From: Escherichia phage vB_EcoM_G50
DNA length: 64,000 nt
Strand: one strand, 5' to 3'
Sequence record: NC_054917.1
Below the pieces are notes generated by a model. The model worked only from the letters and a program-made list of their open reading frames with translations. It was not told the origin of the DNA and did no database searches. Positions within the stretch are counted from its first letter, which is position 1, and the number at the start of each line of letters is the position of its first letter. A program made the translations under genes and the position numbers. Positions 3,779-64,000 of the stretch are shown here, piece after piece.

Positions 3779-5306
3779 CTACTGTTATCCATTTACCATT
3801 AATCTGTACTTCATCATTTTCATTTACGATAATTGTATCGCCATTTAGTTCGAAAGTAAACCACTCGCCATCTTCTTTTTCTTCAAACGCCTTTTCACCA
3901 AGAACTAATCCAGTGATTGCGCAAATGTCAAACAGTTCTTTGTTTTTAAGCATATCGGCATATGACATACCCCAACTGTTGAGAACTTTACCACGCAATG
4001 GATAACCACCATGAAGTTCTTTATCACGAACATCAATAAGATATCCGATAGCAGAATCACCCTCAGTCAAGAAAAGAGTAGTGTCAGCGTCTTTACCACA
4101 AAGATTCGCTTTAATATGTTTATGAACCTTAGCTTTAGAAGCCTTTTTAGCTGCTTTAGTTTCTGCTGCTTTTTCTGCCGCCAATTTACGAGCCAAGGCA
4201 GCTTCAATAATTGGCATCAGAATTGCTTCATTATTTAGAATAGCGCGTGAAATCTTTTTAGCATCAAGTTGAATATGACTACGGATTTCACCAAATGGAG
4301 AAGTCAAACGCTCTTTAGTTTGAGAATCAAATCGCATGTTTTTCATATCACGAACAAACATAACGATAGTCAAACATTCTTTAACGCGTGCTTTAGTTAC
4401 ATCAATTTTGAACTTGCGTTTGATTTGTGGAATAAGGTCTTCACAAATATCATCCATAACACAGTCAATGTGATGGCCACCATTCTTAGTATGAATGTTA
4501 TTGACGTATGTTAATTGACGAAAACCGTCGGGTGAACGACCAACCGCAATAGAACAATTTTCTTGTTCTTGAACGATAGCATGTTCATCATATTGGCGTG
4601 CATATTTCTTGAAATTACCCTGAACCTTTTTACCATTAAAGGTAAATTGAATATCAGGATAAACTACTGCAAGTGTCTGGAGACGATCTAGTGTAATGTC
4701 AAGATAAACCTGGGACAGCTCATTAGTTTCAAATGACATAAAATCAGGAATGAAAGTAACGCGAGTTCCTTTCCATTTTCCAGGAATATCTTCCCACGAT
4801 TTATTTTCCATGCCATTCGAGCAGCGAACTACAATATTATTTTGACCGTCGCCAGTTTCACCGACAAACATCACAGAAAAAATGTTAGTTAAACTAGAAC
4901 CAACACCGTTCATACCGCCAGTGACGCGTTCTTTATCATCACCGAAGTTACCACCTGCTTTTGGAATAGTCCATGCAGCAACAGGACCAGGAATTTCTTC
5001 ACCAGTAGGTGTTTTAACCATCGCTTGTGGAATACCGCGACCATTATCTTCAACTGTTACTTGATTGTTTTTAATAGTAACATTAATTTTATTCGCGAAT
5101 TTAAACTTAGTACGAATACCTTCATCTACTGAGTTATCGATAATTTCATCAATAAGCTTAACAAGACCAGGTACATACTGAACACTTTCCCATTTACCAA
5201 ACAGAAAGCGCTCATGCATTTCATTAGCAGAAGAGCCAATATACATGCCGCTACGCTTTTTGATATGTTCAATATCGCTCAGAATTTTAATTTCATTCTT
5301 AATCAT
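3756..5306 (-). CDS. 39: DNA topoisomerase II large subunit gp39 (GyrB-like ATPase)
   Basis: 516 codons from ATG at 5306 (track start 5309 is an upstream GTG); GHKL ATPase and toprim-like motifs; matches T4 gp39. Confidence 0.93.
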   Translation of the reverse strand: MIKNEIKILSDIEHIKKRSGMYIGSSANEMHERFLFGKWESVQYVPGLVKLIDEIIDNSVDEGIRTKFKFANKINVTIKNNQVTVEDNGRGIPQAMVKTPTGEEIPGPVAAWTIPKAGGNFGDDKERVTGGMNGVGSSLTNIFSVMFVGETGDGQNNIVVRCSNGMENKSWEDIPGKWKGTRVTFIPDFMSFETNELSQVYLDITLDRLQTLAVVYPDIQFTFNGKKVQGNFKKYARQYDEHAIVQEQENCSIAVGRSPDGFRQLTYVNNIHTKNGGHHIDCVMDDICEDLIPQIKRKFKIDVTKARVKECLTIVMFVRDMKNMRFDSQTKERLTSPFGEIRSHIQLDAKKISRAILNNEAILMPIIEAALARKLAAEKAAETKAAKKASKAKVHKHIKANLCGKDADTTLFLTEGDSAIGYLIDVRDKELHGGYPLRGKVLNSWGMSYADMLKNKELFDICAITGLVLGEKAFEEKEDGEWFTFELNGDTIIVNENDEVQINGKWITVGELRKNL

Positions 5307-60982: not shown

Positions 60983-61196
60983 ATTTTACTTCCTCACCAG
61001 TACCTAAATCATATTCAACTAAACGAATAGGCTCATGAATTCCATATCCCTGAACAGAAATTTCTGTCGTAGGATAAATTCCATCAATATCACCCATATT
61101 CCATGCTTCATTAAATTGCTGTTCGCCTGAATTACTAAACCACTCGGCGAAAGCATTTAGCACATCTTTAGAACCTTCAATAATTATCTTTGCCAT
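60975..61196 (-). CDS. hypothetical small protein
   Basis: 73-aa ORF. Confidence 0.4.
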   Translation of the reverse strand: MAKIIIEGSKDVLNAFAEWFSNSGEQQFNEAWNMGDIDGIYPTTEISVQGYGIHEPIRLVEYDLGTGEEVKYD

Positions 61197-61558
61197 TACA
61201 GACTCTCGGTAAAGGTACGAGCGATAACGTCGCGCTGCTGTTCCGGAGTCAGAGAGTTAAAGCGAACTGCATAACCGGATACACGGATGGTCAGCTGCGG
61301 ATATTTTTCCGGATGCTTAACTGCATCTTCCAGAGTTTCACGACGCAGAACGTTAACGTTCAGGTGTTGACCACCTTCAATTTTAACTGTAGGCTGTTGC
61401 TCAATTTCAATTTCACGGGCATGCAAACCGTAGAAAATTTCTGGGTCTACAAAAGAGTCCTCTTTAAAGGTTTTAGAAACAATAATTCGTGCTTGAATAC
61501 CATCTTCAAAATAAATAGTACCTTTGTGTGTGCCTTCAAGAATTTGATATGCTTTCAT
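61196..61558 (-). CDS. autonomous glycyl-radical cofactor (GrcA/YfiD-like)
   Basis: 120 aa; C-terminal about 60 aa ([59 protein letters not shown]) identical to E. coli GrcA as recalled; GC-rich host-like codons in that half. Confidence 0.8.
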
Positions 61559-61565
61559 ATAAACC

Positions 61566-61892
61566 TCAATTAGAAAATAAATTTATCCAAGATTGTTCTT
61601 TAATTAAAAATGGCTCAGAATCATATGCCATTAAACTCTGTGTGATTAGTCCTTTAAAAGGCCCATCAATAAATTCCATAGTAAAATATGGAATTTTATT
61701 CATTAGCCGTGCATTAGGAGCCGTGCACAAAACTCTGCATCCTTTGAATACGCCTTTTTGTAATTTGTATTGCTTAGGATAAAATTCGCTCAAAATGTTA
61801 TTTTTTGCTAAAATTTCAAAATGATTCACCAATTTATTTTTAATAGTTTTTGGCGAAAAATAGAGATATTCGAAAAGCTGAGTGTCTGTCAT
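61566..61892 (-). CDS. hypothetical protein
   Basis: ORF from ATG overlapping upstream stop (ATGA). Confidence 0.4.
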
Positions 61893-62431
61893 CATTGCAT
61901 TCCGATTACGAAAAACTGTGGACGAGTAATACCACCAATGCAACATTTAATATTACAGCAGCAGTGTACAGTGTCAATATGGACACTATAAATCTTATCC
62001 ATATCAGGAGATTTGACAGGCTCATCAATTATATATAAAATTCGCGAAAGCTTTAAACCTCTGAACTTGCTTCCTTTATTACCGATAAAACTGCGCACAG
62101 AATCAGTAAATAAACGAAAACGTATATCATCATTAGAATAACGCGAAAATTCCTTTTTAATGTTATTTGCAGAAATTTTAGCGTAAGCTGAAGTATTAGA
62201 AAGAACAATAACTGTTCCGCCATCATACAACCAATTAGCAGCAAAGTTAGTCACAGCAATTGATTTACCGGATTGACGTCCACCGTCTAGTCGAAGTGTG
62301 CAATACTGTTTAAGTAATTCTTCAAATGGCGGGATATATTCGTTTTTACAAATTTCTTCTACTCTAGCATCAGAATGGTGTGTAAAAGCATTCATCAGGG
62401 ATAGATAAGGACCAGTTAAAAATGTTCTCAT
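61892..62431 (-). CDS. small P-loop NTPase
   Basis: 179 aa; Walker A GGRQSGKS, Walker B ILYIIDE; C-terminal Cys cluster. Confidence 0.5.
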   Translation of the reverse strand: MRTFLTGPYLSLMNAFTHHSDARVEEICKNEYIPPFEELLKQYCTLRLDGGRQSGKSIAVTNFAANWLYDGGTVIVLSNTSAYAKISANNIKKEFSRYSNDDIRFRLFTDSVRSFIGNKGSKFRGLKLSRILYIIDEPVKSPDMDKIYSVHIDTVHCCCNIKCCIGGITRPQFFVIGMQ

Positions 62432-62571
62432 TTCTTCTCTCTAAATTTGGGCCATTCCGTGGCGCATGAATTGTCCATTTCTGTATTTACCCATTACCGC
62501 ACTTGGGCTCGACCTTATTACAGGTTGGCGGGAATCCCTCACAGAATCATGAGGTCCAGGTTGTTCCCATA

Positions 62572-63045
62572 TTATTTGAACGATTTAACGTACTGAATAG
62601 AACCTTTACTATTCACGAAAGCGATTTTACCATTTTTATTATACATGGTAGCAGTACGCTGATAGCCATAAGTTTGCTTACCAGATTGATAACCAACTAA
62701 TGCAAAATTATCTTCACCCATTTTATTCTGTTTAGCGCGAATGCGTTCATGACCATGTGCCATAAGAACCTTAGCATCACCAGTTGCAATGGATCGACGA
62801 GTTTTTTCATCTTCAACTGTATTAACAAAGTCGTCAAATGAATCAAATTTAGCATGAGATTTATTATACAGTTTTCCATCTACTGCATAATTATATCCCT
62901 GTACATCCATCTCAACTTCTGTACCATCATCCAATACAGCAGTGATTTTCTGTCCTTTTTTAAATTTCAAAAGATCAGTAAAAGATTCAGCAATAATTTG
63001 AGAATTAATAGCTGCTTCAGTAATAAATTCTTGATATGTTTTCAT
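62572..63045 (-). CDS. internal head protein with capsid targeting sequence
   Basis: 157 aa starting MKTYQEFITE (CTS consensus). Confidence 0.65.
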   Translation of the reverse strand: MKTYQEFITEAAINSQIIAESFTDLLKFKKGQKITAVLDDGTEVEMDVQGYNYAVDGKLYNKSHAKFDSFDDFVNTVEDEKTRRSIATGDAKVLMAHGHERIRAKQNKMGEDNFALVGYQSGKQTYGYQRTATMYNKNGKIAFVNSKGSIQYVKSFK

Positions 63046-63061
63046 GTGTATCCTTTAATTT

Positions 63062-63379
63062 TTATTCTTTAGGGAAGTTTTTAGAATATGCATCATAAAG
63101 CTTATTTCCAATACGGCGGAAAACTCTAGCCGCAAAACGATTTTCTGGGTTTTTAATCATGATTTGCATCATATAAGTACCCGCGTCAGAAAGAGCTTCT
63201 TCATAGTACCCGTTAATTTCTTTAAGAGTCCTACGTTTACCACCAGGACCATCAACAGTGATTTTCCATTTACCTGTAGAAGTGCGACTTGGCGGCTCAA
63301 CTTGTTCAATCCAGATATAACCGCCTTCTACACGTTGTCCTTGGGCAGATTCTGCAATAAATTCTTTAAACGTTTTCAT
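63062..63379 (-). CDS. internal head protein with capsid targeting sequence
   Basis: 105 aa starting MKTFKEFIAE. Confidence 0.65.
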   Translation of the reverse strand: MKTFKEFIAESAQGQRVEGGYIWIEQVEPPSRTSTGKWKITVDGPGGKRRTLKEINGYYEEALSDAGTYMMQIMIKNPENRFAARVFRRIGNKLYDAYSKNFPKE

Positions 63380-63416
63380 ATGGTTCCTTTAAATATTTTA
63401 ATTAGTAACTATGAAT

Positions 63417-63446
63417 ATACTATCACAGTTCTAGGAGAAAGTAAAC
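63417..63446 (-). promoter_or_regulatory. T4-type early promoter upstream of internal protein genes
   Basis: GTTTAC-18-TAGTAT. Confidence 0.55.
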
Positions 63447-63450
63447 AACT

Positions 63451-63996
<546 letters not shown>

Positions 63997-64000
63997 TCAT

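Follow-up and report, generated by a model that had tools for sequence, protein, structure and literature searches.

Genes and features of the vs.8 leader

The stretch of DNA analyzed here, 64,000 nucleotides of Escherichia phage vB_EcoM_G50 (NC_054917.1; "the window"), contains a 140-bp gap between two genes on the minus strand, which carries all of the genes at this locus. The gap separates a gene for an internal virion protein, upstream, from the counterpart of phage T4 gene vs.8, downstream. The initial annotation, made from the letters of the window, had called the gap GC rich and had offered a structured RNA, a recombination scar, or a remnant of displaced host or phage sequence as its origin. 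Comparative analysis identifies the gap as the noncoding 5′ leader of vs.8 and predicts that its minus-strand RNA folds into a hairpin (H0), a 55-nucleotide (nt) core, and a GGA block. Its features, in the order of a minus-strand transcript, are as follows (aa, amino acids).

62432-62571, minus strand: entire noncoding vs.8 leader (the 140-bp spacer)
62537-62554, minus strand: hairpin H0, CCUCAU-GAUUCU-GUGAGG; the annotated T4 vs.8 start lies in the 3′ arm (GUG here)
62482-62536, minus strand: core RNA motif, 55 nt, found by model R1 (70.9 bits, E = 1e-18, filters off)
62526-62529, minus strand: 5′ strand of helix P1, GCCA, pairing with 62489-62491 and 62493
62512-62525, minus strand: hairpin P2, ACCU-GUAAUA-AGGU; loop G-U-A-N-N-A family-wide
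62494-62511, minus strand: J, an 18-nt near-invariant strand, CGAGCCCAAGUGCGGUAA (alignment A1)
62489-62493, minus strand: 3′ strand of P1, U-G-GGU, with a bulged G at 62492
62465-62483, minus strand: hairpin H3, CAGAA-AUGGACAA-UUCAUG, with GGA in the loop (weakly supported, read by eye)
62449-62465, minus strand: conserved block GCGCCACGGAAUGGCCC, a possible hairpin GCCA-CGGAA-UGGC with GGA in the loop
62441-62443, minus strand: in-frame TAG closing the T4-type N-terminal extension (TAT in T4)
61892-62431, minus strand: vs.8, 179-aa stand-alone RecA-like P-loop ATPase

The gap is GC rich as described, with 47.1% G+C compared to 34.5% window-wide, and 0.37% of all 140-nt windows are equally rich. 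BLAST found no match for the spacer in 5,426 E. coli genomes, ARAGORN predicted no tRNA or tmRNA gene in 61000-64000, and an Rfam 15 scan of 62300-62700 gave no relevant match at E values up to 10. A scar or displaced DNA is contradicted by the lack of an E. coli match or a credible bacterial or archaeal match and by >95% identity in hundreds of T-even phage genomes, including T4. A structured RNA is favored by covariation, extreme conservation, and strand asymmetry.

Covariation defines a folded RNA core

In the core, P1 (three to five pairs, with the bulged G) closes hairpin P2, which is followed by the J strand (family version, CGAGCCnnnGnGCGGUAA). R1 matches the window exactly once. We examined this architecture in two alignments: A1, an ungapped MAFFT alignment of 53 distinct sequences over 55 nt, and A4, composed of 93 R1 model hits (59 distinct). 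In A1, 85.5% of the cells are paired and the covariation score is 0.356, compared to 0.099 ± 0.014 for shuffled alignments (0 of 500 reach the observed value) and ≤0.073 for slid controls. The corresponding values for A4 are 93.6% and 0.404, compared to 0.098 for shuffles and ≤0.081 for slid controls.

The three core P1 pairs occur as AU/UA/UG/CG/GC, CG/UA/GC/AU, and CG/GC, with one or two unpaired cells each. Since the P1 columns were not constrained by the patterns used to collect the sequences, the P1 covariation was not built in. P2 is paired in 99.6% of cells; 56 sequences close it with an A-U pair and 3 with G-C, and loop positions 4 and 5 are free to vary. Paired with its bulged G, P1 forms in every sequence class, while a version without the bulge fails in five classes and was rejected. 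Two other proposed pairings were also discarded: an internal J hairpin (CG.GC/GUGCG), in which position 2 varies among G, U, A, and C while its proposed partner stays C, and a long-range helix between GGGAUUCC and GGAAUGGCCC, whose 5′ side varies without compensation and whose 3′ side is invariant. The alignment contains 21 G.U cells, which would be A.C on the opposite strand, indicating that the folded strand is the transcript strand. When entire leaders were aligned with MAFFT and folded with RNAalifold, P2 and the GCCA/UGGC hairpin of the GGA block were the only elements recovered, and the remainder was mispaired.

Flanking hairpins and the GGA block

H0, immediately upstream of the core, shows compensatory variants: CCUUAU..AUAAGG (L072), CCUCGC..GUGAGG (L030), and CCUCA..UGAGG (L008; L numbers designate the collected sequence records). 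It is followed by GAUUCCC rather than by a U run. For H3, by-eye reading suggests equivalents in other genera (ACAUA..UAUGU versus ACAUU..AAUGU and ACAUUGGAU..AUCCAUGU).

Of 49 distinct regions upstream of vs.8, 44 contain the pattern GYGCCANGGAAYGGCC of the GGA block, in every case 31 to 43 nt before the ATG. The block keeps this spacing even where the core lies ~500 nt away, before an inserted internal-protein gene, and the two are therefore separable, the block staying by vs.8 while the core moves. The GCCA/UGGC hairpin has no covariation support; U-to-C changes in it produce uncompensated A.C oppositions. The two GGA triplets (62456-62458 and 62474-62476, minus strand) are invariant in T4-like leaders and lie 15 to 20 nt apart in plausible loops, also without covariation.

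The long T4 reading frame through the leader

In a base-for-base alignment, the T4 counterpart of the spacer is codons 1 to 40 of vs.8 together with 26 nt that extend up to the stop codon of denV. T4 vs.8 (ORF 64.0) is annotated as 219 aa in NC_000866, so that a stretch conserved between the two phages is treated there as coding. The possibility raised in the initial annotation, that the spacer is ordinary conserved T4 intergenic sequence, was thus right about the conservation and wrong about its being ordinary. The window keeps the T4 frame, but GTG replaces the ATG start, the TAG at 62441-62443 stands in place of TAT, and one copy of a 9-bp direct (tandem) repeat, CTTATAGAG, present in T4, is missing. 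The T4 duplication and TAG-to-TAT change (L002:4290-4330, aligned with window 62432-62450) are situated just upstream of the vs.8 ribosome-binding site. Together they fused the leader to the vs.8 frame and gave rise to the 219-aa annotation. The T4-type extension read from the stretch would be MRDSRQPVIRSSPSAVMGK.

Of the 43 distinct T4-like leaders, 4 keep the frame open through the core; in the other 39, an in-frame stop lies downstream of the core and before the vs.8 ATG. The T4 "start" codon is GUG, AUA (L072), or CUG (L008) in relatives, in all of which H0 stays paired. Leaders of other genera have 1-nt insertions or deletions within the stretch. In phages outside the T4 group, stop codons occur in or beside the motif, and Pseudomonas phage PsgM04F has a TAA immediately before it in the T4 frame. 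The original T4 entry, X04567, already gave alternative starts, including one for residues 1-179; the phrog_1488 profile is only 177 aa long; and 18 aligned Vs.8 homologues share a start, M[RKN](T)FLT, that corresponds to an internal Met of the T4 protein. By these comparisons the long T4 Vs.8 open reading frame (ORF) is a T4-specific accident or annotation artifact.

The initial annotation had stated that the gap held no ORF of any length on either strand. This was incorrect: a 33-aa GTG ORF (62441-62542, minus strand) lies wholly within it, and on the plus strand two ORFs with TTG starts, 49 and 65 aa long, begin in it and exit at the high-coordinate end. None of these is credible, and the minus-strand ORF is the stretch that the T4 annotation treats as coding. 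An ORF starting from an upstream AUGGAC was rejected, with frame shifts in L016 and L028, an immediate stop in L020, and the AUG missing from L008 and L010.

We consider it very improbable that the stretch codes for protein, whether the N-terminal 40 residues of Vs.8 or the 33-aa microprotein. The T4 annotation, the GTG frame open in the window, and the 4 open leaders would fit such a function, but the 39 closed leaders, the loss of the start in L072 and L008 with the hairpin kept, the single-nucleotide indels in other genera, and the stops within or beside the motif outside the T4 group argue against it. In addition, nucleotide identity is far above that expected from the neighboring protein, at 37% identity.

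Distribution of the core

The spacer matches 1,030 phage records. A 31-nt center of the core is identical across T4-like genera whose Vs.8 proteins are ~37% identical, and ~40 nt of the core is 92 to 95% identical in phages unrelated to T4. Core-bearing phages infect Escherichia, Klebsiella, Salmonella, and Pseudomonas. A search of 185,579 bacterial and archaeal genomes for the exact 19-mer gave no match. The single bacterial match to a degenerate pattern, in a Mucilaginibacter metagenome-assembled genome, scored 20 bits, lacked P1, and had an A.C in P2; it was treated as chance. A 32-nt sequence, ACCUGUACCAAGGCCCGGCGCAAGCGCGGUAA, is shared by that Mucilaginibacter genome (L094:424-455) and two large metagenome contigs (L061 and L070).

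In most T4-like leaders the core lies 92 to 102 nt before the vs.8 start. Five phages reached through the protein (a Karamvirus with two tandem core copies, a Mosugukvirus, a Roskildevirus, an Enterobacter phage, and a Klebsiella phage) also carry it upstream of vs.8. In some Klebsiella-type genomes an internal-protein gene stands between core and vs.8, with the GGA block beside vs.8, and PKO111 has a full copy before an internal-protein gene and another before vs.8. A sequence resembling an early promoter, GTTTACA-N17, in other-genus leaders was rejected because its −10 element is poor and it is absent from the T2 type.

Duplicated cores were located at L029:1555-1609 and 2077-2131, L089:965-1019 and 1079-1131, and L045:5089-5141 and 5200-5254; the copies are in tandem in L045 and in Aeromonas phage PS49. 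The vs.8-proximal copy of PKO111 has a chimeric look, with a T2-type 5′ half and a Gelderlandvirus-type 3′ half, and is the only sequence with an unpaired P1.

Outside the T4 group the core is placed within tRNA arrays or close to them, and its strand is in every case that of the tRNAs. In the Vequintavirus Murica it is located in a gap of 345 nt that precedes an array of seven tRNA genes, flanked by genes for proteins of phrog_3330 and phrog_5676, which have no known function; in PsgM04F and Shigella phage SF1-1 it stands between two tRNA genes. It also occurs in phage contigs of 38 to 75 kb. In phages like PsgM04F and SF1-1 and in related contigs of 44 to 70 kb, it is embedded in a conserved RNA of >400 nt inside the tRNA array (L004:1670-2170, minus strand; L032; and L035/L036/L039/L046/L048/L050/L062/L066/L084/L087). 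Rfam scans of the Murica and PsgM04F versions returned no family, and this larger element may represent a large RNA, so far undescribed, that belongs to phage tRNA arrays. It has long flanking hairpins on both sides, CACAACAGGUAAGAGCAUUG and CAGUGCUCUUAUCGUUGUG separated by a variable 60 to 100 nt, with compensatory changes, and the variable insert of L036 contains a T-arm-like GCGGTTCGATTCCGCCG.

Two further contexts were observed. On a GC-richer 158-kb contig (L034:6840-7010, minus strand), the core directly follows a 166-aa ORF and precedes AAAAGCCCGUUUUCGGGCUUUUGUUUU, which by eye looks like an intrinsic terminator hairpin but was not called by the scan tool; this layout resembles that of a small RNA derived from a 3′ untranslated region (UTR). 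In siphovirus-sized genomes of ~44 kb (EcoPhCCP1, L031:1490-1700; L049, L052, L059, L077, and L079), it follows an endolysin gene and is succeeded by a near-consensus promoter, TTGACA-N17-GATACT, and ~70 nt on by a strong terminator, with no tRNA nearby.

These varied settings bear on whether the conserved element acts as DNA, namely, as a recombination hotspot or a PeSL-type cassette (an early promoter with a stem-loop) that shuffles the edge of the e/internal-protein/denV region and owes its conservation to horizontal spread. T4 and the window lose homology at the stop codon of the gene before the leader, no more than a few bases from the leader's upstream boundary; the cargo before the leader differs among phages (denV, ipII, ipIV, and others); copies flank the internal-protein gene in PKO111; a 40-nt core is common to unrelated phage families; and PeSLs have been described at such sites (PMC4122927). 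However, a PeSL requires a promoter by definition and the spacer has no promoter-like site, the compensatory P1 changes and the G.U asymmetry point to selection on a single-stranded fold rather than on duplex identity, and recombination needs identity, while the flanks of the core are wholly different between families. We therefore think a purely DNA-level function doubtful, although such a role may coexist with one at the RNA level.

vs.8, the absence of denV, and neighboring genes

The 179-aa P-loop ORF described in the initial annotation, with its motifs GGRQSGKS (Walker A) and ILYIIDE (Walker B), is indeed present and lies on the minus strand at 61892-62431. The ORF is 98% identical to residues 41 to 219 of T4 Vs.8 and belongs to phrog_1488 (E = 5.4e-79, residues 3 to 179 on profile positions 2 to 177 of 177). 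It sits directly upstream of vs.7 in the vs-regB block, in the order vs.6 (GrcA), vs.7, vs.8 found in T2 and T4. By sequence and position it is the ordinary hypothetical T4 gene vs.8, encoding a single predicted RecA-like ATPase domain. The 18 homologues have invariant DGGRQSGK (Walker A) and ILYIIDEP (Walker B) motifs and two invariant arginines. The C-terminal Cys cluster also noted at the outset is present as HCCCNIKCC, but it is not conserved beyond Tequatrovirus, is not common to the homologues, and falls in the only segment of the structure model with a pLDDT of <50. Vs.8 was found in 1,008 phage records, and among the matches listed all are T4-like (Straboviridae). In its predicted fold it is similar to RecA1, an RNA-binding domain of DEAD-box helicases. 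The literature searched contained no paper that treats vs.8 together with bacteriophage T4.

denV is indeed missing from where it had been expected: T4 DenV, searched by tblastn against all 64 kb of the window, with the remainder of the genome outside the search, gave a best E value of 1.5. The P-loop gene does not stand in its stead, since T4 carries both, in the order vs.7, vs.8, denV. denV is a variable accessory gene across phages, and T2, which has no v (denV) function, is classically more UV sensitive than T4. The gene is simply absent here, as is normal for T2-type phages.

T2 itself presents a further case. Its vs.8 is a pseudogene with two separate 2-bp deletions, annotated as a 110-aa fragment (L001:2820-3520, LC348380, aligned with window 61880-62580), and in all T2 records the match is shorter by the same 4 nt. 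In the T2 core, a G-to-U change leaves a mismatch that breaks the P2 helix. T2 is, by these alignments, a single natural case in which both vs.8 and the RNA core have decayed.

This case, together with the co-location of gene and core, has a bearing on whether the core is a cis-regulator specific to vs.8, either a riboswitch-like sensor or an operator that Vs.8 binds for autoregulation. The core is found upstream of vs.8 in at least 10 genera with conserved spacing, it combines conserved unpaired nucleotides with covarying helices, the modeled Vs.8 fold is like an RNA-binding RecA1 domain, and T2 has lost both vs.8 and an intact core. Against this, the core occurs in phages without a vs.8 homologue (Vequintavirus, PsgM04F-like phages, and the 38- to 75-kb contigs), Vs.8 being confined to Straboviridae among the matches listed; an internal-protein gene can separate the two; no expression platform was found; and T2 is one case. 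We judge a gene-specific regulator unlikely. Because phages without vs.8 carry the core, Vs.8 cannot be its general binding partner; as a partner in T4-like phages it would be attractive, given the co-location, the DEAD-like fold, and the T2 case.

The other genes of the locus are as follows.

61196-61558, minus strand: vs.6, GrcA-like (annotated GrcA in T4)
61566-61895, minus strand: vs.7 homologue, 109 aa (phrog_2049, E = 3.6e-54; position matches T2/T4)
62572-63045, minus strand: ipIV-type internal virion protein gene, 157 aa, MKTYQEFITEA start (PF24183, E = 5.7e-96; phrog_3155; ipIV in the T2 annotation)
63062-63379, minus strand: second small gene with an internal-protein-like N terminus, 105 aa, MKTFKEFIAES start (phrog_3966, E = 2.4e-33)
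63451-63945, minus strand: gene e (lysozyme), from the ORF translation; position as in T2/T4

The gene order is that of T2. It is the same as that of T4 (vs.7, vs.8, denV, ipII, ipIII, e) except for denV, ipII, and ipIII. Positions 61560-62600 match phage REP4 at 100% identity and several independent T2 records at 97.3%; by sequence, the source phage of the window is a T2-type Tequatrovirus. The vs.8 stop and vs.7 start overlap as ATGATGA (61889-61896), which suggests possible translational coupling of the two genes; the program-made ORF list lengthens vs.7 to 126 aa through an upstream ATG within vs.8. vs.6, which encodes a GrcA/YfiD-like glycyl-radical cofactor protein, has a local G+C content of ~50% and is a second compositional outlier near the GC-rich spacer.

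Proposed role of the core

The core is present without vs.8 in tRNA arrays, before internal-protein genes, and in a 3′ UTR, and for this reason we infer that it is a self-contained, portable recognition module rather than a vs.8-specific sensor. The most likely reading, which we hold with somewhat better than even confidence, is that it is a portable module for recognition or processing at the RNA level, acting in cis on a long early transcript. In this model, the core would be a specific recognition site on the polycistronic early transcript, with a protein, a nuclease, or its own catalytic fold as candidate partner. It could mark the head of the vs.8-to-vs block for processing, stabilization, or control, and the GGA block next to the ribosome-binding site could serve as a translation-proximal operator that tunes vs.8.

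Several observations weigh against a cis-acting folded module. The near-invariance of P2 and J is partly by construction, as the search patterns fixed those letters; sequences obtained by BLAST or through the Vs.8 protein relax it modestly, those from the protein route including the loop variants GUGAAA and GCAACA and 1-nt deletions in J. The control with related sequences that the covariation tool provides does not amount to a probability. The stem-loops pointed out in the initial annotation, CCTCA..TGAGG (62537-62554) and GGGAATCCC (62530-62538), are present but are not above chance energetically: single-sequence folding of the spacer gave minimum free energy z scores of +0.59 (minus strand) and −0.46 (plus strand), i.e., no thermodynamic signal. 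The structural signal of the leader is comparative, not energetic. The spacer (62432-62571) contains no promoter-like site on either strand, no intrinsic terminator, and no alternative pairing of an expression-platform kind. We infer transcription and processing solely from the orientation of the genes and tRNAs. Lastly, action in cis is indistinguishable from action in trans, and the tRNA-array and 3′-UTR contexts fit a stand-alone small RNA at least equally well.

A trans-acting small RNA, be it a host-factor decoy or sponge or an anti-defense RNA, would be parked upstream of vs.8 in T4-like phages and released from long transcripts, as T4 rnaC and rnaD are. Such an RNA or decoy is nearly as compatible with the data as the cis role, and we regard it as possible, if on the low side. 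It would account for cores in tRNA arrays on the tRNA strand without any downstream ORF, for the L034 core placed after an ORF and before a terminator-like hairpin, and for tandem and duplicated copies; the 18-nt unpaired strand, preserved in phages of Escherichia, Klebsiella, Salmonella, and Pseudomonas, points to a partner that these hosts share. On the other hand, the tight distance from core to ATG in most T4-like leaders (92 to 102 nt) is unexpected for an independent gene, the element has no promoter or terminator of its own in the window, and R1 gives no hit in the T4 tRNA/rnaC/rnaD region.

A bolder reading, which we put forward only as a speculative proposal, is that the core represents a new class of small functional RNA in virulent phages of Gammaproteobacteria, either a self-cleaving or nuclease-recruiting processing module or a decoy for a host tRNA-targeting defense nuclease. 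As a processing module, it would cut polycistronic and tRNA-array transcripts at defined points. T4-like phages might then have co-opted it to head the vs.8-to-vs operon, where the RecA-like ATPase Vs.8 may act together with it. As to the decoy, the invariant letters CUGUAA of the core are the first six of the seven in the E. coli tRNA-Tyr anticodon loop, and the CUGUAAA versions match all seven.

T4 is the best-annotated phage, and a stretch of it that has been read as protein since X04567 appears to be structured RNA under constraint stronger than that on the surrounding genes. If the fold is functional, the Vs.8 gene model should be corrected in T4 and in genomes that copy the long start, and the leader would give a first handle on the uncharacterized vs.8-vs block. 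Model R1 and alignment A4 make the element a testable RNA family that may act in transcript processing, expression control, or tRNA-centered conflict between host and phage.

Comparison with known systems

For T2-type phages, a missing denV and a P-loop gene of this identity are known or routine. The RNA element is undescribed as far as Rfam and the literature tell, a comparison that lies outside the candidate lists of a large-scale catalogue that gives its size as 10,006 candidates, with 8,495 unnamed IMG/VR candidates (PMC10690425).

PeSLs are mobile regulatory cassettes of T4-type phages (PMC2839356, PMC4122927) in which a stem-loop is followed by an early sigma-70-type promoter, TTTACW-N17-TAYWAT for T4-type phages, and they have been described at the borders of hyperplastic regions (PMC4122927). 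The vs.8 leader is similarly a short conserved noncoding cassette with a stem-loop, located at a hyperplastic border (the variable denV/internal-protein/e block), present in several copies and followed by varied genes. It differs in lacking the early-promoter consensus, in having a high-information unpaired strand and covarying helices, and in occurring outside T4-type phages as well. Identity with a PeSL was rejected because the H0 stem-loop is present but no promoter-like site accompanies it in 62432-62571 on either strand.

Structured RNAs are also known from phage tRNA regions. T4 rnaC and rnaD are stable RNAs freed from the tRNA cluster, and the large RNAs GOLLD and ROOL and HDV-like "theta" ribozymes occur beside phage tRNAs (see also PMC12286853). 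Like these, the core of non-T4 phages is structured and lies among tRNA genes on the same strand; the difference is that it has no similarity to them in sequence or model and that the T4-like core lies outside the tRNA cluster. No version of the element had a hit in Rfam (including GOLLD, ROOL, and known ribozymes), and kinship with rnaC/rnaD was rejected since R1 has no hit in the T4 tRNA, rnaC, and rnaD region.

The boxB hairpin of lambda nut sites, GCCCU-GAAAA-AGGGC, is like P2 in that its stem is short, its loop is of the G-N-R..A type with extruded positions that vary, and it lies on an early polycistronic transcript, although this is resemblance only. The T4-like leader lacks boxA (CGCUCUUA), and its main conserved information is in the J strand, which nut sites do not have. 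We know of no N-like protein in these phages. Like a riboswitch, the T4-like element has a covarying aptamer-like core at a fixed place upstream of one gene family (in T4-like phages only), but it has no terminator or alternative pairing and also occurs without a downstream ORF in tRNA arrays. For a self-cleaving ribozyme the context is compatible (intercistronic sites, tRNA arrays, small size, and conserved unpaired nucleotides), although the known classes do not match. Likenesses to twister, RNase P J11/12, the 16S 530 loop, 5S rRNA, transactivating CRISPR RNA, and the 23S 1095 loop were discarded as short and without model support.

CsrA/RsmA sites typically place GGA in two hairpin loops 10 to 60 nt apart, one near the Shine-Dalgarno sequence. 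The two GGA triplets just upstream of the vs.8 ribosome-binding site, with their putative loops, may resemble this arrangement. A last comparison is with T4 vs.8 itself (NC_000866), which occupies the same locus and the same DNA; there, the conserved feature appears to be the RNA fold and not the peptide.

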